This document shows positions 10,917 to 30,687 of a stretch of 46,695 nt of DNA, one piece after another; position 1 is the first letter of the stretch, and every line of letters starts with the position of its first letter. The translations under genes were made by a program, and so were the position numbers. The notes under the pieces are model-generated. The model searched no databases, was not told the origin of the DNA, and saw only the letters and a program-made list of their open reading frames with translations. Source of the stretch: a virus (Duplodnaviria > Caudoviricetes). Location: the IMG/VR virus record IMGVR_UViG_3300037846_000042, positions 1-46,695 of that record; one strand, 5' to 3'.

Positions 10917-12940
10917 ACGAGAAAGAGCAAGCGATCTTGAAACTCGGGCGCGATCGTATCCTCGCCCATCAGGTTCTGTTTCGGCACCGCCATCCAGATT
11001 CCACGCCTGCGTTCCACGAAGAAATAATCACGCTCTGGCACAGCCAACTCCCCAAGGCTCTGGTCATGGCCTTCCGCGAGGGTGGCAAGTCGACCATAGC
11101 CGAGGAGGCATTCGTCGTCGGCGCCGAGTACAAACTGTTTCATAACGCCATCATCGTCGGCTCCACCGAGAAGCGCGCGTGTGAGCGCCTGCGCGCCATC
11201 AAGCACGAGATCGAGACCAACGAGCTGCTCGACTCTCTCTTCGGCTATCAGGTCGGCAAGGTGTGGAACGAGGCCGAGATCATTCTCGCCAATGGCGTGC
11301 GCATCATCGCGGTCGGTCGTGGTCAGTCGTTGCGCGGCACCAAGCATCTGCATTACCGCCCCGACTTCTGTTTCTGCGACGACTTGGAAGACAAGGAGCA
11401 TATCGTCACGCCCGAGGCGCGCGACGCCACGCAAGCATGGATGATGGAGGAGTTGCTCCCCTGTCTGGACAAGGGTGCGCGCATCCGCATGAACGCCACG
11501 CCGCTCGACAAGGACAGCTTGCCGATGCGGGTGCGCAAGTGGGACGCTTGGCAGACGCGGGTTTATCCGATCGAGTACGTCGATCCGCAGGGACGCCGTC
11601 AAGCCACCTGGCCGTCGCGCTACCCGCTTGAGTGGATCGACGCCAAGAAAAAGGAGTACGACGATGCAGGCGATCCCGAGGGTTACGCTCGTGAATATAT
11701 GTGCGTTGCAGAAGACCCTCGCGCGAAGATATTCACATCTGGAATGTTTGTTGTCGAACCTAGAGTGCATACTTGGCAACCAACTTTCGCAATGTACGAC
11801 CCCGCTAGAACTACTAAAGCTACGAGCGCAACTACAGGTTGGGCAGTGTGGAGCTGGATCGTCAACCGACTGATCGTCTGGGATGCCGGTGCTGAGATGT
11901 GGAAGCCGGACCAGCTCGTCGACCACATTTTCAAACTGCACGATAAGTTCAACCCGGTGGAGATCGGCGTCGAGGAGGATGGACTTAACGAGTGGATACT
12001 TCAGCCTCTGCGTCACGAGCAACTGCGGCGCAACACACTGATCCCCTTGCGCGCCATGAAGGCGCCGAAGGGGAAGATCAGTTTCATCGAGGGGCTACAG
12101 CCCTTCTTCCTGGCAGGGGAGGTTAGCTTTGCGAAAGAGTTGTCGAATCTTGTGCAACAGTTTTTGTCCTTTCCGACGGGAAGGATTGACGCTCCCAATG
12201 CGCTTGCATATGCGCCCCGAATGCGTTCAGGAATTGTTGTCTATGACAATTTCTCAGCCGGAAATGTTTCGGATGAACTCGCAATCAGGGCTCGATCTCC
12301 AATCTGGCTCGCGCTTAACGCCGCGCAAGGACTGACCACCGCGGTCGCGGTCCAGTTTGTCGAAGGAGCTTTGCATGTCTTGGAAGACTACGTTCGAGAG
12401 GGCGACCCAGGGGCGGTGCTCGCGAGCCTGGTCGCGACTGCGCAGACCTCCCTCGGGGCTGTCCGCCTCGTGGCAGGCAACGACCATTTTGGTTCTTACA
12501 ATCATCTTGGGCTTAGGGGCGCTGTGGCTAAGCTCCCATCCGAGCTGCGACACGGCGGCACTCCCTCAGTGGGGCGCGACGAGATTCGGGGATTGCTTCA
12601 GCGTCAAATCCGCGGACTCCCCGCTCTCCAGATCAGCACCCGCGCTAGATGGACCCTGAATGCCTTCGCGGCCGGCTACGCGCGCGCGGTGGACAAGCGC
12701 GGCGTGGTGCAGGAGGAGGCGCGCGAGGGCGTCTACCGGACGCTGATGGAGGGTCTGGAGGCCTTTACGGCGCTGTTGAAAGTCGGTACGCTGTCGGACA
12801 GCCCGCCCAACGTGCGGATGACCGAAGGGGGACAACGGTATGTCTCAGCGCTTCCGGGACGTTCTGTCCCTCTGCCCGCCAAGGATGCTGTTCTTCAGCC
12901 TTCTGCTGTTACCGATTTTCCTCTTTCCGCACGACGCTGA
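10913..12940 (+). CDS. terL: Terminase large subunit
   Basis: Walker A AFREGGKST, GQSLRG, Walker B RPDFCFCDDLED, REYM, nuclease YDPA...GVEEDG...FPTGRIDAPNALAY. Confidence 0.93.
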   Translation: MNEKEQAILKLGRDRILAHQVLFRHRHPDSTPAFHEEIITLWHSQLPKALVMAFREGGKSTIAEEAFVVGAEYKLFHNAIIVGSTEKRACERLRAIKHEIETNELLDSLFGYQVGKVWNEAEIILANGVRIIAVGRGQSLRGTKHLHYRPDFCFCDDLEDKEHIVTPEARDATQAWMMEELLPCLDKGARIRMNATPLDKDSLPMRVRKWDAWQTRVYPIEYVDPQGRRQATWPSRYPLEWIDAKKKEYDDAGDPEGYAREYMCVAEDPRAKIFTSGMFVVEPRVHTWQPTFAMYDPARTTKATSATTGWAVWSWIVNRLIVWDAGAEMWKPDQLVDHIFKLHDKFNPVEIGVEEDGLNEWILQPLRHEQLRRNTLIPLRAMKAPKGKISFIEGLQPFFLAGEVSFAKELSNLVQQFLSFPTGRIDAPNALAYAPRMRSGIVVYDNFSAGNVSDELAIRARSPIWLALNAAQGLTTAVAVQFVEGALHVLEDYVREGDPGAVLASLVATAQTSLGAVRLVAGNDHFGSYNHLGLRGAVAKLPSELRHGGTPSVGRDEIRGLLQRQIRGLPALQISTRARWTLNAFAAGYARAVDKRGVVQEEAREGVYRTLMEGLEAFTALLKVGTLSDSPPNVRMTEGGQRYVSALPGRSVPLPAKDAVLQPSAVTDFPLSARR

Positions 12941-13292
12941 TGCCCAGAATATCGATGGCAACATAAAGTCGTTCATTGTCCTAAACAACACGACTTCGGT
13001 TCCGATCATCACGGGCAACCACTGGGTAACCACCGTTGAGGTTTTCAACAACTCGACCACGATTGCGTGGCTCAAGCTCTACGACGCCACGACCGCCACT
13101 TGCGGCAGCGGCACCCCGGTTGCCCGCTACATGATCCCTGGTAATACCAACGGTTCGGGCGGCATCTCGAACTACTCGGTGCAGGATCGCTACATCAGCG
13201 GTATCGTAGCTTGCGTGACTACTGGCATTGCGGATAGCGACACATCGGCACCCGCCGCCACCACATATGTGTGGCAAGTTCACTGGAGGTGA
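12840..13292 (+). CDS. Signal-peptide-bearing beta-rich protein, putative virion accessory (alternative start 12885)
   Basis: MLFFSLLLLPIFLFPHDADA|Q, followed by Thr/Asn-rich beta strands. Confidence 0.7.
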   Translation: MSQRFRDVLSLCPPRMLFFSLLLLPIFLFPHDADAQNIDGNIKSFIVLNNTTSVPIITGNHWVTTVEVFNNSTTIAWLKLYDATTATCGSGTPVARYMIPGNTNGSGGISNYSVQDRYISGIVACVTTGIADSDTSAPAATTYVWQVHWR

Positions 13293-13293
13293 C

Positions 13294-13500
13294 ATGCGCT
13301 GGCGCGTGCTGATCCTTGCGTTGGCCGCAGCCCTACTATCGGGGCGCGCCGATTCGCGCGGTATCAGTGGCATGATGGGCATACTTGGTGGCGGCAGCGG
13401 GGCACCTCCTGTTTCCGGTGCGCTTATTCTTGAGGACGGCGCCTCGTTCTTGCTGCTTGAAGATGGCTCACGCCATCTTTGTCTTGAGGGAGGTTGCTGA
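13294..13500 (+). CDS. Small signal-peptide protein with LLLEDG repeats
   Basis: GGAGG upstream; MRWRVLILALAAALLSGRADS...LILEDGASFLLLEDGSRHLCLEGGC. Confidence 0.7.
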   Translation: MRWRVLILALAAALLSGRADSRGISGMMGILGGGSGAPPVSGALILEDGASFLLLEDGSRHLCLEGGC

Positions 13501-15212
13501 TGCGCAAGTGGCTCGCAATATGGGCGCTCCTGGTAGGGTTGCCGATTACGCTTGCGTGGGCGGCAAATACGCAGCTATCTAACCTCACGGCTGGCGGCGC
13601 GGTGTCGGCTACCGACTTGTTCTACAATGTTCAGTCTGCTGGCTCTGGTGGCGTCAAGACAACCGCAGCGCAATTCGCGACATTCGCGTGGACGAACCCA
13701 GTTATCACTGGATCGCTGACCGCGACCGGGCTCGTGACCAACGCCGATCTCGTGAACCCGGCCACGACCGTCAACGGGCAGACTTGCACACTCGGCTCGA
13801 CTTGCACGGCCCCGGCTGCTGCCGGGACACTGACAGGCACAACGCTTGCTGCTGGTGTCACAGCGTCATCGCTGACCAGCACCGGAACGCTCGCCGGACT
13901 GACGGTGACGGGCTCTTTCACGGCAACAGGGCTAGTTACGAATGCTGATCTTGCGGGTTCTATTGCCGCCGCGAAACTGATCGGCACGGACATCGCGACG
14001 GTCGGCACTCTCACTAGTGGTACTGCTGGAACCGGCTTCGTCATTGGCGGCACCACCATGACGCTCGGCTCGGATGCGACCGGGGATATGTACTATCGCA
14101 ATTCGAGCGGCGTCCTGACGCGGCTTGCAGTTTGTACCGGGACGAATGTTCTCGGGGCATCTGGCGGCTTGCCGGCTTGCGTGGCGCAAAGCGGTGGTGG
14201 AGGAACTCCCGGCGGAGCAAACACCAACGTCCAGTTCAATAACTCGTCTGCCTTCGGGGGCGATGCGGGGTTCACTTACGCGGGCACCGGGCAAGTCACA
14301 ATCACGAACTCGACCGTCAACACCACGCCATTGACGATGACAGGGCAATCACTTACAGGAACAGATACGCACTCGTTCCTGAGCATGACGGGCACGTTGA
14401 ACACGTCCGGCGCTGTTGATGTGATCGCATTGCATGAAACCTGCACTTCTTGTGCGAGTGCGAACTTGTTTAACCTGTATGGCGGCGCGGCTGGCACGAC
14501 CAGTGAGTTCAAGGTTAGTCCTACGGGTGTTGTGACAGCAGCAAATAGCGTCGTAACGCTGAATAATTTTGTTATTTCAAACGGCGGCGCTGTAGTTACT
14601 GCCAACAGTCAAAATGAAATTCAATTTAACCAAGGTACAAATTTGCAAGTGTTTTGGAACAACACTGGCCCGCAATGGCAACTGAATGTTACCGACCTAG
14701 CAATGGAGCTTGCTGCGAATTATAAAGTTGCGTGGGGCGCGACGGCTGACAGCACCGGGACGCTCGACACTTTCCTAATTCGCAAAGGCGCGGCAAATGT
14801 CGCTTTCGGAACAACTGATGCAGCTGCGCCGGTTGCGCAGACTATATCCATGCAGAATGTTGTTGCGGGCACGAGCAATACGGCGGGTGCTAATACGACT
14901 ATAAAGGGCTCTATAGGCACAGGTACAGGTGTGGGTGGTGATATAATCTTTCAAGCTGCGCGCGCTGGTACAACGGGTACGGCACAAAATGCCTTGCAGA
15001 CAGTATTCACGGTCAAGAATACAGGTGTTATTCAAGATAATGTAGTGTTCTCTGCTGCCGGTACGCCGCTGCCGACTTGCAATGCTGGCGCGGAGGGCTC
15101 GCGTGGCGCTGTATCAGACGCCTTGACCCCTACGTTTTTGACCGCCTATGTCAGTGGCGGCGCTGTTCACGCATCTGTTTACTGTGATGGCACGAGCTGG
15201 AAAACGGATTGA
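13500..15212 (+). CDS. Tail-fibre-like protein with an N-terminal signal peptide
   Basis: Thr/Gly/Ala-rich; fibre motifs TGDMYYRNSSG.LTRLAV, PGGANTNVQFNNSSAFGG, VYCDGTSWK; internal repeat TGS.TATGLVTNADL. Confidence 0.75.
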   Translation: MRKWLAIWALLVGLPITLAWAANTQLSNLTAGGAVSATDLFYNVQSAGSGGVKTTAAQFATFAWTNPVITGSLTATGLVTNADLVNPATTVNGQTCTLGSTCTAPAAAGTLTGTTLAAGVTASSLTSTGTLAGLTVTGSFTATGLVTNADLAGSIAAAKLIGTDIATVGTLTSGTAGTGFVIGGTTMTLGSDATGDMYYRNSSGVLTRLAVCTGTNVLGASGGLPACVAQSGGGGTPGGANTNVQFNNSSAFGGDAGFTYAGTGQVTITNSTVNTTPLTMTGQSLTGTDTHSFLSMTGTLNTSGAVDVIALHETCTSCASANLFNLYGGAAGTTSEFKVSPTGVVTAANSVVTLNNFVISNGGAVVTANSQNEIQFNQGTNLQVFWNNTGPQWQLNVTDLAMELAANYKVAWGATADSTGTLDTFLIRKGAANVAFGTTDAAAPVAQTISMQNVVAGTSNTAGANTTIKGSIGTGTGVGGDIIFQAARAGTTGTAQNALQTVFTVKNTGVIQDNVVFSAAGTPLPTCNAGAEGSRGAVSDALTPTFLTAYVSGGAVHASVYCDGTSWKTD

Positions 15213-15216
15213 ACCC

Positions 15217-15546
15217 ATGATCAGAGCAGCGCTAGCGTTTCTACTCGCATCTGTGCTTTCGGCTAACGCCGGGAGCTTAACTATCACCTACAAGAACACG
15301 GCCGGCACCACGACGTTCGCGCCTACAGCCACGATCTCGGACGCTGACGCAGCGACGTTCGTTTCTTGGTGCTCGGCGCATTACGCCAGTACGCCGGGGA
15401 GCGGGACCGCCGCTGGCTGTTTCAATATCTACGCGAACGACATTTTTAACCAGTTGAAGTTGGCTGTGCAAGCCGCAGCGCAGACGACGGCAGCGCAAAA
15501 TGCGGCTAATGCTGTCGTGCCAATCACTGTAACGCCTGCACAATAA
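15217..15546 (+). CDS. Signal-peptide-bearing protein (possible fibre chaperone or accessory)
   Basis: MIRAALAFLLASVLSANA|G; directly downstream of the fibre gene. Confidence 0.65.
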   Translation: MIRAALAFLLASVLSANAGSLTITYKNTAGTTTFAPTATISDADAATFVSWCSAHYASTPGSGTAAGCFNIYANDIFNQLKLAVQAAAQTTAAQNAANAVVPITVTPAQ

Positions 15547-15586
15547 ACATTTCTCTATTGCGGTATGGTTCAACAAAGTAGGATAA

Positions 15587-17734
15587 ATGGCAGACGAAGA
15601 AAAAGAAGTCGAAGATTCAACACCTCCTCCGCAACAGACGGAGGATCGGGAAGCCGAGCTGAAGGACAAGCCCGGCGTCGAGAAGCATTGTCTTGAGCTT
15701 TACAAGGACATCGAGAAGGGGTTTCAGGATCAGTGGGAGCGCGGCAACTCCCAGATGGACTATTGGGACATCTACAATTGCAACCTTGGACCTAACCAAT
15801 TCTATTCGGGCAACTCCAAGATTTTCGTTCCGATCGTCCACGACGCCGTGAACGCGCGCAAAACGCGCTTCGTCAATCAGATTTTCCCGCAGTCCGGCAA
15901 GCACATCGAGGTTTCGGCCAGTGAGGATAAGCCGCAAGCCATCATGTCGCTGCTGGAGTTCTACATTCGCAAGTGTCGGCTGCGCACGTCCGTGATGCCA
16001 GGTTTGGTGCGCAACGGTGATGTGGAGGGGCAATATAATCTCGTCGTGAGCTGGACGCGCAATGAGCGGCACGTAGCGATGCGGGTGAAGAAAGGTCCGA
16101 CGATCGACGCGCTCAAGATCGAGGGCGAAGAGGAGTTCGACGACATCGAGGAGGAGACGCTCGTTCATCAGTATCCGAATGTCGAGGTTGTGCCCGACGC
16201 GGACGTGCTGGTATTGCCGTTCACGGCGCCTTCGATCGAGGCTGCGGTGCAGAACGGCGGCTCCGTGACGGTCATCCGCCGTTGGTCGAAGGCCAAAATC
16301 AGGCAGCTCATTCGCGAGAAGGAGATCGACAAGGAGGCGGGTCAAGCGCTGATCGAGGCGATGTCGCAGAAAGGCCGTGAGCAGTCGATCAACAAAGATA
16401 AGCGCATGGTCGATGCGGCCGGCATCAAGTCGGAAGGCGGCAAGATTTCGGCGCAGATTTACGAGACGTGGAGCAAGATAAACGTCGAGGGCGAGCGCCG
16501 CATGTGCCGCACTTATTTCGGCGGTGAGGATACGATCTTGTCGGTCAAGCGCAACCCGTACTGGTGCGACAAGGTGCCGGTGCTGTCGGCGCCAGTCGAG
16601 AAGGTGCAAGGCTCGTTCAAGGGAATGAGCAAGATCAAGTTTGTCGATACCATGCAGTACGCTGCGAATGACGCGGTGAACATGGGGTGGGACGCTGCCG
16701 CTTACGCGCTATTGCCGATCATCATGACGGACCCGGAGAAGAACCCGCGCACGGGCTCGATGATCCTCAATGTGGCGGCGATCTGGGAAACAAGTCCGAA
16801 GGATACGCAGTTCGCCAATTTCCCGCCGCTATGGAAGGATGCGTTTGGCTTGGTCAATGCGTCCAAGGAGCAGATATTTCAGACGCTGGGTGTCAATCCC
16901 GCCATGATGCCGCAGCAGTCGTCGGCGCCGGGCAAGAAGATGAACCAGGCACAGATTGCCAATGAGCAGCAGGTCGACTTGCTTACGACCGCGGATGCGG
17001 TGACGACGCTGGAAGGGGAAATTCTTACGCCGTTGTTGCAGTGGTTCATCTGGCTCGATCATCAATATCGCGACGAGGATATTACGTTGCGGGCGTTTGG
17101 CGAGATGGGTATCCGGGCCGAGATGGAGCGAATCGAGCCGGTGCAGATGGATCGTCGCTTTGAGTTCCGATGGTTCGGCGTCGAGGCGGCGCGCAATGCG
17201 CAGCAGCTTCAGATGCAGATGGCCGGTATGAACATGATCAACGGCATACCGCCGCAGAAATATCCGGGCTATGAGCTGAACATGGCGCCGGTCATTTCGC
17301 AGTTCATCGAGAACCTGTTCGGCCCGCGGCTGGCGCCGCAGATATTCACCGACATCAGGAGCAAGTTGACGCTCGACCCCGAGTTCGAAAACACGATGTT
17401 GGAGGCTGGCTATCCACTGCTTGTCCACCCGATGGACGACGACGCCGCGCACATGCAGGCGCACATGCAGGCGTTCCAGCAGCAAGGCGACATGCACGGC
17501 ACGATTCGCGAGCATATGATTCGGCATCAAATGAACATGCAGCAGAAGCAGCAAGCCATGCAGATGCAGCAGCAACAGATGATGGCGGGCGGTCAGCAAC
17601 AGCAGAAAGGCCAAGGAGGTCAGCCGCGACAAGGCGCGGTGCCGGGCGGCCCGCGACCGAACGGGCAGATGCCTCCGGGTGCCGTGCATCAGGATAGGAT
17701 GCACCAGGGCGCTCCACGCGCCGCGAGGGGCTGA
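15587..17734 (+). CDS. Portal protein (P22-like podovirus type)
   Basis: 715 aa; downstream of TerL; helical, with a Gln-rich C-terminal barrel-like region and DD..HM..H motif. Confidence 0.85.
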   Translation: MADEEKEVEDSTPPPQQTEDREAELKDKPGVEKHCLELYKDIEKGFQDQWERGNSQMDYWDIYNCNLGPNQFYSGNSKIFVPIVHDAVNARKTRFVNQIFPQSGKHIEVSASEDKPQAIMSLLEFYIRKCRLRTSVMPGLVRNGDVEGQYNLVVSWTRNERHVAMRVKKGPTIDALKIEGEEEFDDIEEETLVHQYPNVEVVPDADVLVLPFTAPSIEAAVQNGGSVTVIRRWSKAKIRQLIREKEIDKEAGQALIEAMSQKGREQSINKDKRMVDAAGIKSEGGKISAQIYETWSKINVEGERRMCRTYFGGEDTILSVKRNPYWCDKVPVLSAPVEKVQGSFKGMSKIKFVDTMQYAANDAVNMGWDAAAYALLPIIMTDPEKNPRTGSMILNVAAIWETSPKDTQFANFPPLWKDAFGLVNASKEQIFQTLGVNPAMMPQQSSAPGKKMNQAQIANEQQVDLLTTADAVTTLEGEILTPLLQWFIWLDHQYRDEDITLRAFGEMGIRAEMERIEPVQMDRRFEFRWFGVEAARNAQQLQMQMAGMNMINGIPPQKYPGYELNMAPVISQFIENLFGPRLAPQIFTDIRSKLTLDPEFENTMLEAGYPLLVHPMDDDAAHMQAHMQAFQQQGDMHGTIREHMIRHQMNMQQKQQAMQMQQQQMMAGGQQQQKGQGGQPRQGAVPGGPRPNGQMPPGAVHQDRMHQGAPRAARG

Positions 17735-18636
17735 TGGCTATCCTCAAGCCCCGTCAATATTTTAGGGACGATTCGTTTTTTGTTTTTTTGACTGCCGACG
17801 ACGTTCTAAATGCTTTGCTGATCAATTCGAACGCTCCTTACATTCGCCGTCGTTTAACAGGCACCACTACGTTTTATGCCGCGACGACTGGCAGTGATAC
17901 GAACGACGGCTTGACGCCCGGAACGCCGTGGCGGCACATAAATTATGGGCTGGCTTATATTTCACAGAATTACGATTTCGCTGGGCAAAGTGCGATTTTA
18001 CAGCTTGCAGATGGAACTTATGTAGAGAATGTAAATCAGACGGCGATCGTGGGCAGAGGCGCTTTGGCACAAGCGACGGCTATCATTCAGGGCAATGCTG
18101 CGAATCATTCAGCAGTAATCATTGCTCCGACGACAGGAAATTGTTCTGTCGCTGTCGATCTTAATGGCGGCGGGTGGACGTGGAAGAACGTGCGCTTTAC
18201 GACACCTGCCGGCGCAGGCATTTTTGTGGACTATAGCGCGGCGACTTTCTTTGATGGTTGCGTGTTTGACACTTGTACGAACCACATTCAAGCTTCGAAT
18301 GGCGGGTTTTCGGAAGCAATAAATAATCCTTACGATGTCGTGGGCGGTGCGGCAGGCGCTCATTTTAACATGGTAAATCAAGGAAAATTTATAGCTCAGT
18401 CTGCTGCGCATTGTCAGATTCCAAACGCTTTGGCGTTCGGCTTTTTTGCTTTTGCGAACGGGCAAGGTAATATCGACGCGGAGTTTTTGACTATCTCGGG
18501 GGCAGGAGTTGCAGGGACGACAGGAACAAGATATTCGTCTTCCGGCGTTTCCATAATAAACACGGGCGGCGGCGGACCTAACTTTTTCCCCGGCAATGTC
18601 GGGGGCTCAACGGCGAACGGAGGGCAATACACCTGA
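17734..18636 (+). CDS. Beta-helix (pectin-lyase-like) spike or fibre protein
   Basis: FYAATTGSDTNDGLTPGTPWRHI, LQLADGTY.E, IIQGN, C-terminal FFPGNVGGSTANGGQY. Confidence 0.7.
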   Translation: MAILKPRQYFRDDSFFVFLTADDVLNALLINSNAPYIRRRLTGTTTFYAATTGSDTNDGLTPGTPWRHINYGLAYISQNYDFAGQSAILQLADGTYVENVNQTAIVGRGALAQATAIIQGNAANHSAVIIAPTTGNCSVAVDLNGGGWTWKNVRFTTPAGAGIFVDYSAATFFDGCVFDTCTNHIQASNGGFSEAINNPYDVVGGAAGAHFNMVNQGKFIAQSAAHCQIPNALAFGFFAFANGQGNIDAEFLTISGAGVAGTTGTRYSSSGVSIINTGGGGPNFFPGNVGGSTANGGQYT

Positions 18637-19370
18637 TGTTGAAACCCATCGTGTTCGATTGCAATCACGCAAATCAGATCGGCTGGCACGTCGGTGGCGA
18701 GCAGGCCGGCTTCATCGCTCTCAAGGCCGCGGGCTTCGTCGGCGGCTTCCTCAAGGTGCGGCAGGGCATAGGCTTCAGCGATCCGGCGTTCGTGCGCAGA
18801 CGCGATCTCATGCGCCAGAACGGGCTCCTGGTCGGGGGTTACGATTTCTCGACTCACGACGATGTGAAGGAGAACGTCAAGGATTTCTTGGCGTCGACCG
18901 GCGCTGATCCGTCACTCGCGCATTGTCTCGATTTCGAGGATAACAAATCCTCGCAGATGACGGGCGCAATGGCGCGCGAGTTTCTCGATCGCGTGGATCA
19001 GTCGACCGGCCGCGCCTGCTGGATTTACGGCGGCAACCGGATCATCGAGCAGATCAGCAACATGCCCGACATTGAGGATGATGCGTTCTGGGCGCAGCAT
19101 CCGCTGTGGCTTTGTGCCTACAAGACCGACCCGGCATTGCGTGATACGGATGTGGCAACCTTAAAGCAACGTGTGGTTATTCCGAAACCGTGGACCAAAT
19201 GGAAGTTGCTTCAGTATACCGGAGATGGTATAGGTCCACTACCGCACAGCGCGCCCGGCCTGGAAGTGGGGGCTGATCTCAACGTCTACGACGGTGCGGC
19301 CGAGGAACTCGCGGCGTCGTGGCTGACAGATGGAGGGGCCGGTGAACAATCTCACGTGGGGACAGTATAA
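18636..19370 (+). CDS. Endolysin, GH25 muramidase
   Basis: VFDCNH, KVRQG..FSDP.F, G.YDF, CLDFED, LWLCAY, W.LLQYT, DLNVY. Confidence 0.85.
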   Translation: MLKPIVFDCNHANQIGWHVGGEQAGFIALKAAGFVGGFLKVRQGIGFSDPAFVRRRDLMRQNGLLVGGYDFSTHDDVKENVKDFLASTGADPSLAHCLDFEDNKSSQMTGAMAREFLDRVDQSTGRACWIYGGNRIIEQISNMPDIEDDAFWAQHPLWLCAYKTDPALRDTDVATLKQRVVIPKPWTKWKLLQYTGDGIGPLPHSAPGLEVGADLNVYDGAAEELAASWLTDGGAGEQSHVGTV

Positions 19371-19785
19371 GGCTGCGGGGCGCAACGCTCTCAGCTATGC
19401 GGCGGGTGGTATCACGGCTGCGGCGGCGATCGGCCTCATTTCGCAGCATGACTCGACCAGCCTCATGTCGGGGCTCAATCAGATTGCGAGCGGGCTGACC
19501 AGCATCGTCCAGGGTGTCGGCGTGATTGCCGGCATTCTGGCGCCGATTTATGCAGCGTTCAGGGCAGCTCATAGCGCGAGCCCGCAGGAGCAGATCAAGA
19601 CCGTGGCTGCGATGCCCGAGGTCAAGGGCATCGTGACCACGCCCGCGGTGGCGGATGCGCTGCCTATGGAGTCCAAGGTAGTGGCGACCGCGGCCGAGAT
19701 ACCGAGGGCGCCTATCCCCAACGGTCCAATTTCGTCTCAAGGTGTTGCGGCTGGGCAACAGAATCCGAATCGGCCCGGTGTATAG
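19342..19785 (+). CDS. Holin-like membrane protein
   Basis: Two hydrophobic segments; directly follows the endolysin. Confidence 0.55.
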   Translation: MNNLTWGQYKAAGRNALSYAAGGITAAAAIGLISQHDSTSLMSGLNQIASGLTSIVQGVGVIAGILAPIYAAFRAAHSASPQEQIKTVAAMPEVKGIVTTPAVADALPMESKVVATAAEIPRAPIPNGPISSQGVAAGQQNPNRPGV

Positions 19786-19822: not shown

Positions 19823-20548
19823 ATGAAGATTTTGATCGCTTTGCTGATGTTGGGGACGGCGGCACACGCTGCCGATCTAAGGCTCAAGGCGCCGGCCTAC
19901 GTGACGCCCATCTGCACTGCGGGCGTGCCCATGACGCCCACCATGGCGGCTATCGCGCCGTCGTGCTCCGGCCCCTACGCCGGCTTTGGCGTCGAAGGTC
20001 TTGGCTCGAACCTCGATATCCTGGGTTCGGGTATCAACAACAGCGTGTTCGCGGGCGGCGGGATCATCAAAGCCACTGGCGGGTACCAGTTCTGGAACGG
20101 CCAGTTCTTCCTTGCGGGAGAAGCCAATGCCGGCATCAATCTGGCGAACAACGGGCTTGGCGCGCAGGTTGGCGTTGGCAAGAATTGGGATGCCAGCATC
20201 ATCGCCAAGGCTGGCGTCGGCCTGAGCAACGTGCTCGGCATCGGTTCCCAGGGAACGGTAGGCGCGGGCACACCCTCGCAGGGTATCAATCTCGCGGTGA
20301 TCCCCGGCACGTCGCTGATGTCGCCCTATCTGGCGATCGGCGAGAGCTTCAAGCAGGGCAATCAGGGCTGGACGATGGGAGCTGGGACCGAGTTCATCCT
20401 GGCCCAAGGCTGGAATCTCGACATCTACTATCACCACATCAACTGGCAGAACTCGCAAATGACGGTGTTGCCGGGAGCGCTGCCCGCCGCGGTCGTGTCG
20501 ACCACGCCTGAGAACCGGGTTGGCTTCGCGTTCCTGAAGATGTTTTAA
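19823..20548 (+). CDS. Outer-membrane beta-barrel protein, Omp25/RopB-like
   Basis: Signal peptide then AADL..KAP; SGPYAG, GGYQFWNG, GWTMGAGTEF, C-terminal Phe. Confidence 0.8.
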   Translation: MKILIALLMLGTAAHAADLRLKAPAYVTPICTAGVPMTPTMAAIAPSCSGPYAGFGVEGLGSNLDILGSGINNSVFAGGGIIKATGGYQFWNGQFFLAGEANAGINLANNGLGAQVGVGKNWDASIIAKAGVGLSNVLGIGSQGTVGAGTPSQGINLAVIPGTSLMSPYLAIGESFKQGNQGWTMGAGTEFILAQGWNLDIYYHHINWQNSQMTVLPGALPAAVVSTTPENRVGFAFLKMF

Positions 20549-21075: not shown

Positions 21076-21272
21076 ATGGCGAACTTCGGTCTGATCTTCC
21101 TCGTCTTTGCATTCGTCATCGCGTGCATCGCGTGCATCGCGTCGCGTCGCGTCGCGTTCGTGGTTGGTATGCGACGCCGCAGCCTTTCAATCTTCTCGCT
21201 CTTGCGATTGCGTTCTGGATCGCGAGCGAGCTGATCGGCGGTCTGGCGAAGTCAGGCATCCTGCCCCATTGA
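21076..21272 (+). pseudogene. Small two-TM membrane protein, frameshifted at a (GCGTC)n repeat
   Basis: AGGAGG RBS; the first frame stops at 21234, but removing one 5-bp unit restores ...ASRRVRGWYATPQPFNLLALAIAFWIASELIGGLAKSGILPH. Confidence 0.6.
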
Positions 21273-22164: not shown

Positions 22165-23508
22165 ATGGCCGTCAACCAGGCATCCGGCTTCCAAGCCGAC
22201 ATTGAAGCCTATATTGCCGACAAGACTTTGCCGCTCGCCCGGCGTCAGCTCGTGGTCTACCAGTTCGGCGACCCACTGACCTTGCCCAAGGGGCGCGGTC
22301 TCACCTACACGGCCACCCGCTATAATCGTGTTGCCCTGCCCTTCGCGCCGCTCTCGGAGGGCGTGCCTCCGGTGGGCGAGATCATGACCATTGGCCAGGT
22401 CACGGCGACTGCGCTCCAGTGGGGCGACAAGATCACCATCACGGACGTGGCCGAGATGACGATCAAGCATCCGCTGTTCAAGAAGGCGATCGAGCTGCTG
22501 GGCCTTCAGGTGGCGGAAACTCTTGAACGCAACACCTTCAACAACCTGATGGGTGGCGCGCAGATCAATTACGTGAACTCGCGCGGCGCCAGAGCCTCCC
22601 TTGTGGCCGGCGACGTGATGAACATTCACGAGTTGAACCGGGCCTATGCGATGCTCGTGACCCTCGGGGCCCCGCGCTATTCGGGCGACGAGATGACGGA
22701 CACGAAGCTGGAGGCCGACGCAGGCGGCTCCAAGGCGTCGAGCGATCCGCGCAAGATGCCGCATTATGTCGCTGTCATTCATCCGTTTGTGGCGGGCGAC
22801 CTGCGCGAGAACCAGCCGATCCAGTATGCGTGGTCGCAGTCGGACATCAACCGACTTTACAATTACGAGCTGGGGGAATGGTCCGGCATCCGGTTTTGTA
22901 TGTCAAATCTTGTGCCGTCGTTCGTCGGCAACGCGCAGATCAATCCCGGCATCGCGGCGACCGGCACGTTGGCGACCGGCAACTACTTCATCGTGGTCAC
23001 GGGCTCGGACACCCAGAACCAGTACGAACAGCAAATCTATCTGGTGTCGGCGTCGACCGCGGTTGTCGGTCCCAACGGGTCGCTCACGGTGGCGCTGCCA
23101 TCGACCGCCAACTACACCTGGAGCGTCTACGTCGGCACCACGAATGCGCCGGTCAATCTGGGCCTGTCGGCTTCCGGCCCCACGTCAGGACCGTTGCAGG
23201 GGCAGGCGACGCAGCTTGCAGGCGGCCAGACCGTCACGATTACCGGCCTGGGCTCCGCGCAAATCCCGCCCGCGTCGCCGTCCGCTGGCGTGACGGTCTA
23301 TCCGAACTTCATCTTCGGCCGTGGCGCCTATGGGCAGATCATGCTCGACGACGTGAAATTCACGTACCTGAAGGAAGCGGACAAGAGCGATCCCCTGAAT
23401 CAGCTTCGGGTGGCCGGATGGAAGGCATTTTATGGAACTATTTTCCTCAATCAGCAGTTCATGATGAGGATCGAATCAACCAGCGCGTTCAATTCCACCT
23501 TTGGGTGA
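22165..23508 (+). CDS. Major capsid protein (N4-gp56-like HK97 fold)
   Basis: LPKGRG, PLSEGVPP, QWGD.I.ITD, YVAVIHP.V..DL, ELGEWSGIRF, DKSDPLNQ...GWK. Confidence 0.92.
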   Translation: MAVNQASGFQADIEAYIADKTLPLARRQLVVYQFGDPLTLPKGRGLTYTATRYNRVALPFAPLSEGVPPVGEIMTIGQVTATALQWGDKITITDVAEMTIKHPLFKKAIELLGLQVAETLERNTFNNLMGGAQINYVNSRGARASLVAGDVMNIHELNRAYAMLVTLGAPRYSGDEMTDTKLEADAGGSKASSDPRKMPHYVAVIHPFVAGDLRENQPIQYAWSQSDINRLYNYELGEWSGIRFCMSNLVPSFVGNAQINPGIAATGTLATGNYFIVVTGSDTQNQYEQQIYLVSASTAVVGPNGSLTVALPSTANYTWSVYVGTTNAPVNLGLSASGPTSGPLQGQATQLAGGQTVTITGLGSAQIPPASPSAGVTVYPNFIFGRGAYGQIMLDDVKFTYLKEADKSDPLNQLRVAGWKAFYGTIFLNQQFMMRIESTSAFNSTFG

Positions 23509-24355: not shown

Positions 24356-24727
24356 ATGCCCTCGTTGGTGTCTTTGAACGCGGTTACTTCTGTGCAGGTA
24401 GGAAGCGCTCTGTCGTTTTCAGAACTTCGGGCCGGAACTGGCATGCTCGTGAATGTGACGGGTAGCCCGAGCAGCGTCAGTATTAATTTGGAAGGGACTA
24501 TTGATGGAACTAATTGGTTTGTATTGGCCAATTCTGGAAACACGGGCCAGTTTCTCATGGGAGGTGTTTTATTTCCAGTAAAAGGAGTGCGCGCAAATCT
24601 TACGGATTTGAGTGGCGGCAGTAGTCCGACTGTTACGGCTACTGTTGTGGCGGCGAGTTTGTTGTCTTCAATAGCAATAAGTCAAAGTTTGAGCACTACC
24701 GTGACCCCCAGCATTACTTACGATTAG
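24356..24727 (+). CDS. Beta-sandwich protein (LEGTIDGTNW motif)
   Basis: 123 aa, AGGAG RBS, lower GC than its neighbours. Confidence 0.65.
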   Translation: MPSLVSLNAVTSVQVGSALSFSELRAGTGMLVNVTGSPSSVSINLEGTIDGTNWFVLANSGNTGQFLMGGVLFPVKGVRANLTDLSGGSSPTVTATVVAASLLSSIAISQSLSTTVTPSITYD

Positions 24728-24735
24728 GACCTCAC

Positions 24736-25254
24736 ATGGCAAAGAAACGAACCCTCGCCGCTGCCCTGGCCGAGATCGACCAGCGTGTCGACGCCGATGA
24801 GCTTCTGGACGCCGCCGCGCGTGAGATGATCAAGAAGAAGGCGCGCGAGACCGTTTTGGCTCGCAGGCGAGCCGAGGTCGAGAAGATCGCGCTTGAGGCC
24901 GCCATCGCGGAGGAGGAGCGCAAGTTCGCGGTTGTCGAGGAGTGGGAGACCGTGACGGTCAACCTCGCGCCGTACTGCGCCATGGTGACACTCGACGGCA
25001 CGATGTATTTCCACGGCATCGACTACGAGGTTCCGTACTCGGTCGCACGCACCATCGAGGACGTGATGGCGCGCACGTGGGAACATCAGAACGAGATTCA
25101 GGGCCAGCGCCGCAAGGGCGATGTGGCCTGGGAAGCGACGCGCAAACGTCGTTATGAGAATGGCGGCGTGGCGCTGGGATCGTCGGAAGCTCAGCGGCTT
25201 CAGAGCACCATGACGCCCGGCACGATCAACACCAGAACTCTCGCGAGGGTATGA
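24736..25254 (+). CDS. Hypothetical protein
   Basis: 172 aa, codon usage typical of this genome. Confidence 0.75.
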   Translation: MAKKRTLAAALAEIDQRVDADELLDAAAREMIKKKARETVLARRRAEVEKIALEAAIAEEERKFAVVEEWETVTVNLAPYCAMVTLDGTMYFHGIDYEVPYSVARTIEDVMARTWEHQNEIQGQRRKGDVAWEATRKRRYENGGVALGSSEAQRLQSTMTPGTINTRTLARV

Positions 25255-25694
25255 TGCTCGACAAGACCGATGACCTCGATCCGACCCTCGACGTTCCCGC
25301 TATCAGTGTGCAATTGTCCTCCACGATCGGCGGCACGCGCAGCCTGACGCTGACCACCGGCTTGCCGATGGACTGCAAGAAGTCGCAGCTCGACGAGCTT
25401 TTGGACAAGATCACGGCGGCGTCCGATCGGCAGAAGAAGCTGTTCGACTTGGAGCAGACTCGCGCGCTGCTCAAGAACGAGGAGCAGAACCTGCATCAGC
25501 ATCGCACGCAGATCGGGATGCAGGAGTTGAAGTTCGAGCAGGATTACAACATCTCTGGGCGCAAGGGCGAGTTTCGACCGACTGCGAGTCAGCGGAGCGT
25601 GCTTGACGGTTTGCAGAAAAATGTCGTCAACAGCTCCGAACGCATCCAGCAATTGCGCGAACTCATTGTGAAGATGGAACAGGAATGCCGCTGA
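25251..25694 (+). CDS. Hypothetical coiled-coil protein
   Basis: 147 aa, ATGA overlap. Confidence 0.7.
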   Translation: MMLDKTDDLDPTLDVPAISVQLSSTIGGTRSLTLTTGLPMDCKKSQLDELLDKITAASDRQKKLFDLEQTRALLKNEEQNLHQHRTQIGMQELKFEQDYNISGRKGEFRPTASQRSVLDGLQKNVVNSSERIQQLRELIVKMEQECR

Positions 25695-26440
25695 CGGCTG
25701 CGCAGATATGCACCCGAGCTGCACAGATCGCCCGTGTCCCCGGTTTCCTGACCCAAGCCGGGGACTCGCTTAACTACGTCCTCCAGGAGCTTTGCCAGAC
25801 CTACGATTTCGATCTGGCAAAGCAGACCTTCAATTTCAACTTTGCCCCCGCGCAGCTCAACGGTAACGGCCAGGCGTTCCAGAACCTGCCGACGAACTAC
25901 CTGCGCGCCATCCGCAACGAGTGTTTTTACTATATCAGCGGCGTGCCTTACCCGATGATCCCGCTCGATCAGGCGGAAGGCGATATGCTGGTTCAGCAGG
26001 CCGGGGTTTCCAACTTCCCGATCTTTTTCTGGACCGACATGACGAATACGGGCGCTACGAACAACGGCACCGCGGGCGTGCCGGTCATGCTGTTCTGGAT
26101 GCCGCCCTCGGGCGCGTATCAGGCTATTTTGCGTTACTATTCGCAGATGCCCGACATTGCGAATCCGTCGACCAGCGCAACCGTGCCTTGGTTCCCGTTC
26201 ACCAACTACCTCGTGACGCGCGTGGCAGGGGAATTGATGAAGGACGCGGACGACGAGCGCACGAATCAGTATCTCGGGGACGATGACGACAAAGCGCCGA
26301 ACGGTGCGGGCACTTTGCTGCGCAAGTATCTTAAGATGAAGGATGACAAGGAGAACCGGGTCGAGACCGTGCAACTCGATCGTCGTCGGTTCGGTCGTTC
26401 GTTTGATCGACTTCGGAATACTAAGCAGATCGGGTGGTAA
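25685..26440 (+). CDS. Head-tail adaptor protein
   Basis: T..QI..RA..IA, LN..LQEL, LPTNYLR, FW.PP...Y...LRYY; located upstream of the nozzle. Confidence 0.7.
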   Translation: MPLTAAQICTRAAQIARVPGFLTQAGDSLNYVLQELCQTYDFDLAKQTFNFNFAPAQLNGNGQAFQNLPTNYLRAIRNECFYYISGVPYPMIPLDQAEGDMLVQQAGVSNFPIFFWTDMTNTGATNNGTAGVPVMLFWMPPSGAYQAILRYYSQMPDIANPSTSATVPWFPFTNYLVTRVAGELMKDADDERTNQYLGDDDDKAPNGAGTLLRKYLKMKDDKENRVETVQLDRRRFGRSFDRLRNTKQIGW

Positions 26441-26441
26441 A

Positions 26442-26714
26442 ATGGGCCATAGTTATCCGACCGCAGAAAAGCAGCGCATCGCCAATGAAGAATGGAATAA
26501 AGCGCGGGATGAACGTAAGGCTGCTGCGCGCAAGGAGCTAGCTGGAAAGATTATCATGGTTGTGGTGGACCGCATCGTAGCCGAGATCATCCGCCCAGGG
26601 CCAAAGCCGGAAGAACGCGAGTGTTACGTTATGGCTGGCGAGTTGCGCGCGATCACAGCAGACCTTGAGGAACTAACTAAGCAAGTTATTGATGTGAATG
26701 GCGGCGTTGATTGA
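26442..26714 (+). CDS. Hypothetical protein
   Basis: 90 aa MGHSYPTAEK..., inserted between adaptor and nozzle. Confidence 0.5.
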   Translation: MGHSYPTAEKQRIANEEWNKARDERKAAARKELAGKIIMVVVDRIVAEIIRPGPKPEERECYVMAGELRAITADLEELTKQVIDVNGGVD

Positions 26715-28345
26715 TGGCCCAACGCAACACCACACCGCTGGTTTGGCGTCCTAAGGGAGCGTGCGACACGCTTGATTCGTCCGACAGCTTCGCGGGCGCG
26801 ATGGCGCAACTGTCGAACCTGATCCCTGATCCGACGACCAAGAACCTGTGGCAGTGCCGCCCGGCCTCCATCAGCAAGACTTCATTCGGCAGCTACACGA
26901 CGCCCGGCTTCATCTCGGCCCTCAAGGTCATCGGCGACCTCGCGTTCGGCATGATCGCATCCGGCCGCAATGCCGGCAAGGATGAGCCGTTCTGCTATAA
27001 CCTTCTGACCAATGCGTTTGTCGTGGTTTCCGGCGTCACCAACGCCAACTCGCCCACGAGCCCATTGACCACAGGAGCATGGACGCCGCCCACGATGGAC
27101 CTCATCGGGGCGTTGCTGGTGGTCACGCATCCGGGCTTCTCGACCGGCGCCAATTTCTTTGGTTGGTTCGACATTACCAATCCCGCGGCGCCTGTCTGGC
27201 ACGCCGGCAATATGGGCGGCGCCATTGCATTCACGGTTGTGCCCACGGCGGTCAAGCAGTTCAACGGCCGGGCGTACTTCATTCAGAACGTGGTGGCACA
27301 GCCGTCCGTCGTGTTCTCCGATGCGCTCAATGCCGTGAATGCCACGAACGCCAACCAGATATTGACCTTCGGCGACAACGTGGCGTTGACCGCGCTGGGC
27401 GGCTTGCAGTTGAACAACCAGCTCGGCGGTATCATCCAGTCGCTCATCGTGTTCAAAGGCGTCACCAATATGTATCAGGTGACGGGTGACTCAGCGCTCA
27501 ATAACCTGACTGTCAACACTCTCAACATCACGACCGGCACCTTGGCTCCGAACACGATCTGCAACACGCCCGAGGGCTTGGCGTTCATGTCGCCCGAGGG
27601 AATGCGGGTCATCGATTTCCAAGCCGCCATCTCGCCGCCAATCGGGCTTGACGGCACCGGCATTGCGGTCCCGTTCGTCTACGCGGTTGTGCCGTCGCGC
27701 GTTGTGGCGCAGAGCGGCGGCAATGTCATGCGGGTGTCGGTACAGAACGGGCTTGCTGTGGGATCGCCCAATCAGGAATGGTGGTACGATTTCTCGCGCG
27801 GCATCTGGACCGGGCCGCACACCTTCCCGGCTTCACTCATCCAGCCGTACAAAGGGACGTTCATCGAGGCGCCGATCGGGATCACGGCGTCGCTGTGGCA
27901 GAGCGATGTGGTGCAATCGAGCACGTCCACTTACGTCGAAAACGGCGTGCAGATGTCGTGGAACTGGCTGACCGCCATGTTGCCGGACAACGATCAGATC
28001 AAGCAGAACTCGATGCAGTTGGCGACGCTCGATATGGCGTTGGCCTCCACGATCCCGAACATCAATGTGCAGGCGATCGATCAGAACGGCACGGCACTGG
28101 ACACGGTGCAAGTGCAGACGCCGGGGGGCTCGACCATATGGGGCGCGTTTACGTGGGGTGGCGCGCCTTGGCTCGGCCCCCCGGCTGCTCTGGCGCCGCG
28201 TCCGCTTTCGTGGACGCATCCGATCGTGTTTGCGCGGTTGCAATTGCAGGCGAACGGACAGAGCGCAGCCGGCATCAAGATCGGCACGGCGCATCTGCGC
28301 TATCAGGTTCTCGGTTACACACCCAACTTGCAGGCGGTGGCATGA
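26711..28345 (+). CDS. Tail nozzle/stabilisation protein (P22 gp10 / T7 gp12-like beta-propeller)
   Basis: 544 aa, all-beta; LSNLIPD...LWQCRP; FNGRAYF; VVFSD; position in the tail module. Confidence 0.75.
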   Translation: MMAQRNTTPLVWRPKGACDTLDSSDSFAGAMAQLSNLIPDPTTKNLWQCRPASISKTSFGSYTTPGFISALKVIGDLAFGMIASGRNAGKDEPFCYNLLTNAFVVVSGVTNANSPTSPLTTGAWTPPTMDLIGALLVVTHPGFSTGANFFGWFDITNPAAPVWHAGNMGGAIAFTVVPTAVKQFNGRAYFIQNVVAQPSVVFSDALNAVNATNANQILTFGDNVALTALGGLQLNNQLGGIIQSLIVFKGVTNMYQVTGDSALNNLTVNTLNITTGTLAPNTICNTPEGLAFMSPEGMRVIDFQAAISPPIGLDGTGIAVPFVYAVVPSRVVAQSGGNVMRVSVQNGLAVGSPNQEWWYDFSRGIWTGPHTFPASLIQPYKGTFIEAPIGITASLWQSDVVQSSTSTYVENGVQMSWNWLTAMLPDNDQIKQNSMQLATLDMALASTIPNINVQAIDQNGTALDTVQVQTPGGSTIWGAFTWGGAPWLGPPAALAPRPLSWTHPIVFARLQLQANGQSAAGIKIGTAHLRYQVLGYTPNLQAVA

Positions 28346-29424
28346 AACGCGAAAATTGGCTTTATCCGCTTATCGCTGTGCTGGTCACATTGGGCGGCTT
28401 CTTCTTTTTGGTGCCGTCCAAGGCCGGCATTACATGCTCGTTGCCGTTCAACCTGACCAACGGTACGACGGCCGATGCCTCGCAAGTCATGGCGAATTAC
28501 AATGCGCTGACGGCTTGCATGTTGAACAATTTGGCGGCAAGCGGGGCGAACAACGACGTTACGTCGCTTTCTGGTTTGACCACGCCACTCAGTCCGGCGC
28601 AGGGCGGCTCGTCGGGATTTACGGGCGGCACGTCGGTCGGCACAAACGCCATCACAGCAACGGCTTCGCCGGCTGGCTTTTCGCTGACGGCCAATTACAA
28701 GATCGTGTTCATAGCGGGCGGTTCAAACACTGGCGCGACTACGTTGAATGTGTCGGGCACAGGCGTCAAGAATTTATACCGCCCGACACCACAAGGTGCG
28801 GTTCCCACGGTCGGCGGGGAGATTGTCACCGGACAGATTGTCGAGGCGGTTTATGATGGAACCGAGTACCAGATGATTTCTCGCCCCGCACTCGATCATG
28901 TGCCGGGAGAGATATTCGATTATGGGGGCGCTGCGGGATGCCCGGCCGGCTCGTTCGAGGCGAACGCGCAGACTGTGACGACGACTTCCTATCCGACCTT
29001 GGGCACGGTACTAAGCACAACTTGGGGCGCGCCGGGCGGTGGCCTTACGCAGATTCCCGATTTGCGCGGGCGAGCGACTTATGAGTTTGATGGATCAGGC
29101 GCGCGGATTACGGTAGCGGGCGGCAATTTCAATGGCGCGGCCGTAGGCAACGTGGGCGGGCAACAGAACAACGTAGTCAACAAGGCGAACCTTGCGGCAT
29201 TCGCTTTGCCGGTGACCGACCCTGGGCACTCGCATACTTACGTTAATCAAGCTACGTTGGCGGCTGTGCAGGCTGGGGCAAGCGCGACTAACTTTTGGCA
29301 GAACACAGTTACGGCTAGTACTGGTGCTTCGCTTACCGGAATCACGGTCGCCTCGGGCGGCTCGTCGACCCCGCTTCCCACCCTGTCCAATGCCGCAATC
29401 GTCTTGAAGTGCGTCAAGGCTTAG
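28342..29424 (+). CDS. Tail fibre with tail-collar domain and N-terminal signal peptide
   Basis: Start MKRENWLYPL (ATGA overlap); collar motif PGEIFDYGG...P.G...YPTL......WG...IPDLRGR; DPGHSH. Confidence 0.82.
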   Translation: MKRENWLYPLIAVLVTLGGFFFLVPSKAGITCSLPFNLTNGTTADASQVMANYNALTACMLNNLAASGANNDVTSLSGLTTPLSPAQGGSSGFTGGTSVGTNAITATASPAGFSLTANYKIVFIAGGSNTGATTLNVSGTGVKNLYRPTPQGAVPTVGGEIVTGQIVEAVYDGTEYQMISRPALDHVPGEIFDYGGAAGCPAGSFEANAQTVTTTSYPTLGTVLSTTWGAPGGGLTQIPDLRGRATYEFDGSGARITVAGGNFNGAAVGNVGGQQNNVVNKANLAAFALPVTDPGHSHTYVNQATLAAVQAGASATNFWQNTVTASTGASLTGITVASGGSSTPLPTLSNAAIVLKCVKA

Positions 29425-29454
29425 CGTACAACCTTACTAGCCAAGGAGGCTCAA

Positions 29455-30687
29455 ATGAGGAAGTTTCTGTCTGTCGTCGGGGGGCTGGGGCTCCTCATTC
29501 TGGGCACCGCCGCGCAGGCTGCTCAGGTGCCGCTATTCGTCGGGTCGGCGTGCTCGGAAGCGAGCCAGCTTTTGTCTTGCCTCAACCAGGTGATCGCGGC
29601 CTACAACGGCCAGCTTGCCGCGGTTCCCGCGCTCGCGACCCCGCGCAACGTCTTGGACAATGGCGCCACCACGGTCCAGCAGCGCGGCACGGGCGCTGCG
29701 ACCTGCGCCCTCAACGGCGCCGCTATCACGTCGGCCGCCTACGCCGCCGATCGCTGGGGCTGCGAGGTCAACGTGGCGGTGGGCGCCGGGCAGCTCACGG
29801 TTATCACCGCGACCCCCTCGCCGCCACTCGGCTTCCAGGCATCGCAGAAATTGGTGCGCAATTCCGGTAGCCTGGCTCAACCGCAGTGCGCCTACCAGGA
29901 AATCCCGCAGGCGAGAGTGGCCGGACTGCAAGGTCAGCAGGTCACGTTCTCGGTCTTTGAGCAGGCGCTTGCCGGCCTCGCCGCCGACCAGGGCTCAACC
30001 ACGCAGTCGTTCAATCTCGTGGTGATCAGCGGCACGACCGCGGATCAGGGCTTCGGCACCTGGACGGCCTCGCCCGCGATCACGCCTGCCTGGGCCGGCG
30101 TTTCCACGCTGGTCAATACCAACTTCATTACGCCGGTCGCGCCGTCGTGGCAGCGTTACAATGTGACGGCGGCGGTGCCGTCGATGGCCTTGGAATTGGC
30201 GGTCGCTATCTGTTTCACGCCGACGACCTCGGGGCAGTCCGCGACGGACGGCATCGCATTCACGGGCGCGCAGCTCGAACAGGGCGCCGTGATGACGGCG
30301 TTCGAGACCAAGGCGCCGGGTGCGGAGCTGGCGGAAGCGCAGCGGTATTATTATCAGGTCACGGAGTCGGCCACGTCGGCCACGATGCGCGGCTCGTGCG
30401 TGAACCTCACGTCGTCGATCTCGAACTGCATCGTGCCGTTTCCGGTTCCGATGCGCGTCGTACCCACGATGACCTATGCGACCGGGTTTGGGATCGCGGT
30501 TGCGGCGCAGACCTCAATGACGGTTTGTACCGCCAACGCCACATCGACTACCGCCACGTCGGCGGCCTCCACGCTCTCGGTTCTGATGTCATGCGCCAAC
30601 GGCGCCGCGGGCGGTGCGCTCGGCACCGCGACCACGTGGGGGGACGCGGGCGGCACCGGGATCATCAGAGCCTCGGCTGACTTTTGA
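29455..30687 (+). CDS. Tail-fibre/receptor-binding-like protein with signal peptide
   Basis: AAGGAGG RBS; RNVLDNG..VQQRG...YAADRW and QLEQG...TAFE......EL..AQRYY motifs typical of phage tail proteins. Confidence 0.75.
   Translation: MRKFLSVVGGLGLLILGTAAQAAQVPLFVGSACSEASQLLSCLNQVIAAYNGQLAAVPALATPRNVLDNGATTVQQRGTGAATCALNGAAITSAAYAADRWGCEVNVAVGAGQLTVITATPSPPLGFQASQKLVRNSGSLAQPQCAYQEIPQARVAGLQGQQVTFSVFEQALAGLAADQGSTTQSFNLVVISGTTADQGFGTWTASPAITPAWAGVSTLVNTNFITPVAPSWQRYNVTAAVPSMALELAVAICFTPTTSGQSATDGIAFTGAQLEQGAVMTAFETKAPGAELAEAQRYYYQVTESATSATMRGSCVNLTSSISNCIVPFPVPMRVVPTMTYATGFGIAVAAQTSMTVCTANATSTTATSAASTLSVLMSCANGAAGGALGTATTWGDAGGTGIIRASADF

Follow-up and report, generated by a model that had tools for sequence, protein, structure and literature searches.

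Leader-bearing tail fibres with paired cysteines in a P22-like podophage: a possible periplasmic step in virion maturation

Late genes and the fibres F1 and F2

The window analysed here covers an entire virus record (IMG/VR record IMGVR_UViG_3300037846_000042; 46,695 bases, estimated completeness 100%) from a tailed phage of the Caudoviricetes. Family matches were obtained for terminase, portal, capsid, a GH25 endolysin and a GNAT gene, and the portal, adaptor, gp10-like hub and putative ejection genes mark the virus, as judged from sequence, as a P22-like podophage. Six of its late genes, all on the plus strand and named here by their start positions, code for proteins that begin with signal-peptide-like leaders and contain paired cysteines (Cys). 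Among them are two fibre genes, called F1 (28342) and F2 (29455). These leader-bearing fibres, which may be exported and joined to the virion only at lysis, are the subject of this study.

Upstream of the portal, a protein of 135 amino acids (aa) from a virus-only family with 2 mature Cys is encoded at 12885..13292 (alternative start 12840). It is followed by a 68-aa protein with a Cys pair and three L-x-L-E-D/G-G repeats (13294..13500), a 570-aa fibre with 8 Cys (13500..15212), whose mature N-terminus is also found leaderless, and a 109-aa protein with 2 Cys (15217..15546). No fold was assigned to 12885, 13294 and 15217; they may represent appendage parts, given their position and the virus-only look-alikes of 12885, and 13294 could possibly act as a linear dock for a trimeric fibre. 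Homologues of 13294 and 15217 were absent from the fetched loci of relatives.

The core virion proteins are leaderless. These are the portal (15587..17734; phrog_1216), the major capsid protein (22165..23508), the head-tail adaptor (25685..26440; PF24175, E 3e-8) and the 543-aa tail hub or nozzle (26714..28345), with leaders in 0/44, 0/85, 0/64 and 0/53 of the relatives' proteins, respectively. The hub was assigned as P22 gp10-like on the basis of synteny and of its Atlas neighbours (PF11134 in 11% of the members of the neighbour cluster, TM 0.74); profile searches with the hub and the adaptor revealed no solved relative. A loop of the hub (28139..28171) contains three tryptophan (Trp) residues, W476, W481 and W486, which are invariant in 63/63 aligned hubs, and is a candidate fibre-attachment loop.

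The signal peptide of F1 comprises 28 aa and ends with S-K-A (28342..28425), and the mature part (28426..29424) displays an anchor (residues 29–64, with C32-C59), a fibre repeat, a beta domain, a collar and a tip (C200-C357). F2 (29455..30687) is built of a leader, an N-terminal anchor helix, a CBM4/22-like sandwich, which is a predicted sugar-binding domain, and a C-terminal domain, and contains five Cys pairs.

Three tail-fibre motifs described in an earlier note on this DNA are indeed present in the sequence. The collar domain PF07484 of F1 scores above the Pfam cut-off, and F1 matches the fibres of SU10, HRP29, A-1(L) and T4 on sequence level. AlphaFold models of F1 and F2 reached a pLDDT of 77 and 88. 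Using Foldseek, the six best rows for F1 were all tail fibres (best E 1e-4), and a T4 gp37-like tip was also listed (E 0.03). The model of F2 matches the CBM4/22-like fold with a Z of 15.6 (rmsd 2.5, 162 aligned) and TSP4 of CBA120 with a Z of 14.1, and 23 phage records match F2. Furthermore, leaderless F1 anchors are picked up by a profile of the F2 anchor (E down to 3e-6), therefore F1 and F2 appear to begin with related modules. By these matches, both proteins are assigned to fibre or receptor-binding folds.

Signal peptides and cysteine pairs

The leaders were called with a hand-made score of the n-, h- and c-region and a threshold of >=7, which is a heuristic and not SignalP. This value is reached by 8 of the 62 genes of the window, namely the six, the gene 19823 of an outer membrane protein (OMP)-like product and a hydrophobic 52-aa open reading frame (ORF) at 21076, and the next score is 5.5. 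Whole-protein shuffles equalled the observed score in 0–2 of 500 cases for each of the six genes. The six late ORFs of the earlier note, with leaders and 2, 2, 8, 2, 4 and 10 mature Cys, are all present in the sequence. For the first one the leader was retained and the proposed start at 12840 was not: the gene caller prefers the ATG at 12885, and the ORF from 12840 overlaps TerL by 101 nucleotides and has a longer leader with a third Cys. The leader from 12885 is the weakest of the six (score 7.4) and contains no basic n-region. Beyond the six, 19823 is a seventh exported-type protein, also with 2 Cys.

That core proteins lack such leaders, as the earlier note had claimed, was found in the relatives as well, since only 1/600 proteins in nine core clusters from 108 loci scores >=7. 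In clusters from the same loci leaders are present in 25/28 F1 and 7/7 F2 proteins, and 109/120 database homologues of F1 and 117/120 of F2 score >=7. The 11 low-scoring F1 homologues are near-threshold cases, truncated gene calls and one truly leaderless protein without Cys. Matches to the N-terminal region of 13500 contain a leader in 109/120 cases, 104 of them with even Cys, and two leaderless proteins start at the mature N-terminus of this fibre. Most close relatives thus also appear to start their fibres with export-type signal peptides.

The leader profile of F1 was derived from 100 homologues matching an anchor pattern. Position -1 is occupied by Ala in 94, Ser in 5 and Gly in 1 of them, position -3 by Ala in 76 and Ser in 15; the leaders are 17–33 aa long and contain K/R at positions 2–5 in 97 cases. 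Leader sequences share 25% identity, whereas the 30 residues at the start of the mature protein share 75%. This profile fits that of signal peptidase I substrates. The Tat and lipoprotein routes were rejected, since a twin-arginine motif or lipobox occurs in 0/100 F1 homologues and no lipobox in the six. Chance or a mis-called start was rejected as well: an in-frame stop lies just upstream of most leaderless forms, and the leader-bearing ones keep the -1/-3 rule. True starts downstream of the hydrophobic segments, which would speak against export, were for the same reason not borne out for F1, and no ATG is present between its leader and anchor. A separate observation concerns the proviruses L240, L237 and L284, in which a short hydrophobic motif ending with LFP is found at the N-terminus of the capsid, scaffold and decoration proteins alike. 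This motif triggers the leader score and is possibly a processing or scaffold signal.

The six leader genes contain 1.69 Cys per 100 aa; for ten core virion proteins the value is 0.30. When unique proteins of at least 90 aa are counted without correction for kinship, mature Cys are even in 137 of the 150 Cys-bearing leader proteins (8 more are Cys-free) vs. 211/548 of the others. In F1 homologues, C32 and C59 are both present in 104 and both absent in 10 proteins, C200 and C357 both present in 42 and both absent in 66, with no discordant case for either pair. The F2 pairs C33-C42, C84-C103, C145-C253, C315-C325 and C358-C380 show 0–2 discordant cases each, and all leader-bearing F2 homologues (117/117) have even Cys. 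This pattern indicates pairwise gain and loss of the cysteines. In core proteins of the window and its relatives Cys are few and unpaired. Neither a phage-encoded oxidase nor a thioredoxin-like one was seen in a crude CxxC screen of leader-bearing proteins, and a maturation system would therefore borrow Sec and Dsb of the host.

Anchors, docks and the route to the virion

The F1 anchor was found in at least 141 distinct proteins, taken from the best 80 of 293 and the best 80 of 184 scan matches; 90 of them contain a leader and 51 are leaderless. Directly 3' of the same hub gene lie 79/90 of the leader-bearing and 44/51 of the leaderless anchor genes, and the start of the leaderless proteins differs from the mature N-terminus by a few residues at most. 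Even, odd or no Cys are present in 80, 9 and 1 leader-bearing proteins vs. 13, 20 and 18 leaderless ones. Since the anchor stays 75% identical while the tips are swapped, F1 shows, by sequence, the conserved N-terminal anchor and variable tip in the tail operon that are expected of a tail fibre.

On a hub tree of 117 taxa, with 76 leader-bearing and 41 leaderless F1-type fibres, the leader changed at least 9 times. The earlier note had proposed to check in homologues whether leader and Cys pairs co-occur, which they largely do: the anchor Cys pair is present in 58/76 leader-bearing and 0/41 leaderless fibres. For two fibres lacking both leader and pair, the tree places leader-bearing fibres as sisters (SH-aLRT 100 and 97), and a tree-corrected test for four or more Cys gave a median p of 0.03.

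Further hints came from the remaining fibres of the relatives. A heuristic filter for leaderless, Gly/Ala/Ser/Thr-rich non-core genes of >=150 aa revealed no leaderless fibre-like gene in 4/10 fetched relatives (G002, G003, G004, G009), in which the leader-bearing genes are therefore the only fibre candidates. Three of the four proviruses with leaderless F1 contain one leaderless fibre of 521–599 aa with 0–3 Cys after the portal. In the fourth (G012, 15799–18180), a leaderless 82-aa stub with the same N-terminus comes first, and after it a leader-bearing fibre of 709 aa containing 10 Cys. Additionally, an extra leader-bearing fibre follows the hub gene in 5/6 cases of hubs with a C-terminal extension vs. 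1/80 without, and this extension is a candidate dock for the extra exported fibre. An exported fibre beside a cytoplasmic dock, either stub or hub extension, agrees with the prediction of late joining.

The extensions comprise 86–99 aa (L049, L076, L184, L195, L196), and the co-occurring extra fibres share an N-terminal motif. In two relatives (G001 30497–32932, G007 13416–15653) the head-tail adaptor is fused to a leaderless, Cys-rich domain of 500 aa with 11–13 Cys, which appears to be an appendage made in the cytoplasm, with odd Cys.

The following route is proposed. The leader-bearing fibre and appendage genes would be expressed late, and the proteins would very probably be exported by Sec of the host and cleaved by signal peptidase I. 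Dsb enzymes of the host may then oxidise the Cys pairs, and the trimers would fold in the periplasm. Meanwhile heads and hubs, whose genes are leaderless, would be completed in the cytoplasm. A holin-dependent lysis, assumed because the endolysin has no leader, would open the inner membrane, so that the freed anchors meet their docks. Fibres and tailspikes of T4 and P22 can be added to finished particles in vitro. Since the cleaved N-terminus resembles that of leaderless orthologues, the docking chemistry need not change, and export could act as a gene-by-gene switch that opens disulfide-stabilised domains to fibres.

That the fibres are exported, oxidised in the periplasm and docked at lysis on particles built in the cytoplasm has in our estimate a probability of about 0.66. 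The earlier note had arrived at the same sequence of export, oxidative folding and late joining, and leaders of the signal peptidase I type, covarying Cys pairs and fibre folds speak in its favour. Several points weigh against it. The home-made leader heuristic is noisy, and one call (L243) looks false. No match of the F1 anchor to solved structures was found, and no close cultured phage is available, the best cultured capsid match sharing 28% identity. Over 9 independent contrasts on the tree, the pair follows the leader in 4.5–4.7 and opposes it in 0 (p~0.06), 18/76 leader-bearing F1 proteins are without the anchor pair, and the five extended hubs are kin and not independent. Finally, the window and 6/10 relatives keep 1–3 leaderless fibre-like genes as possible binders. 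In the window this is 17734 (17734..18636), a spike- or fibre-like protein of 300 aa with 4 Cys and a weak tail-fibre match (phrog_32409, E 0.003). The view of the earlier note that appendage-region proteins carry Sec signal peptides holds for the six leader genes and not for 17734, therefore not every appendage-type gene is exported.

Genes like 17734 are central to a different explanation, in which the leader-bearing proteins, although exported and oxidised, do not become part of the virion at all and serve as soluble receptor-blocking decoys set free at lysis, as superinfection blockers or as host-surface adhesins, while the leaderless genes provide the binding. This would fit to the OMP-like host-envelope protein in the same operon, to two F1 homologues with leader and without anchor (P0043, P0056) and to Bdellovibrio, for which leader-bearing fibre-like adhesins are reported (PMC10769870). 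However, the anchor is conserved under swapped tips in the hub-adjacent slot, and 4/10 relatives would be left fibreless. Moreover, a protein held in the periplasm is unable to reach outer-surface receptors before lysis. We regard this explanation as unlikely and joining at lysis as likely, because leaderless orthologues share the slot of F1 and some relatives contain no leaderless fibre candidate. Quite improbable, too, is that the exported protein merely runs beside a cytoplasmic fraction, arising by failed export or an internal start, which equips the virion and is oxidised by air after lysis. Here, the disulfide-rich virions of the Agrobacterium phages Milano (PMC10811340) and 7-7-1 (PMC12796354) are relevant, since the accessible parts of both papers describe cross-linked core proteins and no export; the 7-7-1 disulfides without mention of export also count against a periplasmic origin, and the terms "periplasm" and "signal peptide" are absent from the Milano paper. 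Nevertheless, in 7-7-1 it is the core capsid that is cross-linked, whereas here the core Cys are few and unpaired and pairing tracks the leader. In addition, no internal ATG is available in F1, and a leader that stays uncut would remain attached to the anchor.

The place of F1 on the particle is a further question. The order adaptor, hub, F1, GNAT-like gene and three ejection-type genes, with other genes after F1, matches that of P22, and F1 stands where P22 has its needle, which weighs against its role as a lateral fibre. F1 could be the central needle or plug at the position of P22 gp26, entering the particle at lysis after its export; F2 and the products of the portal-side genes would then form the lateral parts, and until lysis the DNA would be retained by the hub or by some small protein of the cytoplasm. 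The gp10-like hub, the single F1-type gene per locus (except L248), the short leaderless forms (median 237 aa) and the needle gp58 of phage Pa223, which adjoins the hub gp59 (bioRxiv 10.1101/2025.06.11.659172), are in line with this. On the other hand, no gp26, PDB or PHROG needle match was found for F1, the anchor gene of L108 lies far from the hub, Foldseek lists a T4 gp37-like tip for F1, and the base of the P22 needle plugs the DNA (PMC3741392), a function required before lysis. For Pa223, three hub-loop Trp are reported to form a pseudo-threefold surface, to which a trimeric fibre of 215 aa carrying a T4 gp37-like tip is attached. Since the invariant three-Trp loop of the hub resembles this attachment loop, six lateral F1 trimers bound to such loops are the favoured arrangement, and a needle role of F1 seems doubtful.

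Relation to known systems and further genes

To our knowledge, the cytoplasm is regarded as the place where tailed phages complete all of their virion proteins. The protein pIII of filamentous phages is exported via Sec and contains disulfides, and thus is likewise a receptor-binding protein matured outside the cytoplasm. In contrast, inoviruses assemble at the membrane without lysis, and the present virus is a tailed phage with portal and HK97-type capsid.

Closer to F1 and the hub are the fibres of Pa223 (gp60 with hub gp59), SU10 and HRP29, which share the three-Trp loop (Pa223), a trimeric collar plus gp37-like-tip fibre and the repeat. What sets F1 apart is a predicted cleavable leader together with Cys pairs; the fibre of Pa223 was modelled from residue 2, and disulfides are not mentioned in the accessible part of that paper (bioRxiv 10.1101/2025.06.11.659172). 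S-2L gp50, HMO-2011 gp28, MEP402 gp55, Silvanus gp19 and Kurepalu-1 gp1 are homologous to F2 (HMM E 1e-32 to 8e-14) and annotated as tail fibres of cultured phages; in contrast to F2 these CBM-type fibres are leaderless and without the near-invariant C145/C253. The MAT fibres of Bdellovibrio resemble F1 and F2 as phage-fibre-like trimers after a signal peptide. However, as far as the report is accessible, they are chromosomal cell adhesins with an own N-terminal domain outside any virion operon, and the word "disulfide" is absent from its main text (PMC10769870). Effects of dsbA were assigned to host receptors or pili and not to phage fibres in the accessible parts of two papers (PMC13412088, PMC13596461), and in that of a third SignalP was used in the methods only (PMC13001222). 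No description of exported tailed-phage fibres was found in the literature searched, which held few subscription papers. Leader-bearing fibres are real, family-wide and not found in print there, and would represent a new variant of fibre biogenesis.

It seems somewhat better than an even chance that in a large group of tailed phages the virion is made in two compartments and joined at lysis, with a receptor apparatus made in the periplasm by Sec and Dsb of the host, leader gain and loss per gene and, in some members, no cytoplasmic fibre; three-Trp loops, stubs and hub extensions would serve as docks. If true, lysis would include an extra assembly step and infectivity would depend on host Sec and DsbA of the preceding round of infection. 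The fibres might be shielded from cytoplasmic defence sensors and proteases, and co-infecting phages could exchange them. Fibre expression and engineering in these phages would require the periplasm. In databases, the annotation of genes of this kind is secreted "microcystin-dependent" protein or hypothetical protein, and the natural sister pairs of leaderless and leader-bearing fibres make the idea directly testable.

A capsid scan of IMG/VR gave 135 relatives, of which the best 80 share 68–92% identity; a terminase-based scan for relatives returned nothing, and the hub query gave no match among cultured phages. The product of 19823 (19823..20548) is an outer-membrane beta-barrel candidate with 2 Cys (PF13505 E 4e-5, below the gathering score), and a Gram-negative host is pointed to because it has a leader and a C-terminal Phe; its start presumably resembles those of rhizobial OMPs. 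No match of this gene was found among plasmids, and a host scan in GTDB revealed two short contigs of metagenome-assembled genomes (Vulcanimicrobiota, Terracidiphilus), which are possibly mis-binned. The gene sits within the lysis cassette, and five homologues in relatives likewise lie beside lysis or tail genes; it could code for an exclusion or lysis factor. The cassette further contains the leaderless GH25 endolysin (18636..19370; family match) and a holin candidate (19342..19785), suggested by one hydrophobic segment and by position; an o-spanin candidate was not seen by a crude motif screen.

Downstream of F2, the region 30794..37312 (+) contains a GNAT-like gene and, at the place of the ejection proteins, three genes without Cys; all four are leaderless, and from gene order the last three may code for ejection proteins. 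The late operon closes with an ATP-grasp gene (37460–38791; PurD-like, far below cut-off), which is retained in distant relatives, and a KTSC-domain gene immediately 5' of the terminase (10719–10916) is conserved among relatives. On the minus strand, an ORF at 6603–7427 contains a long low-complexity Ser/Ala/Arg/Glu/Trp repeat, and a helicase-like ORF (44457–46655) shows by eye an intein-like insertion, with an HNH-like ORF (45842–46402) opposite to it on the other strand.

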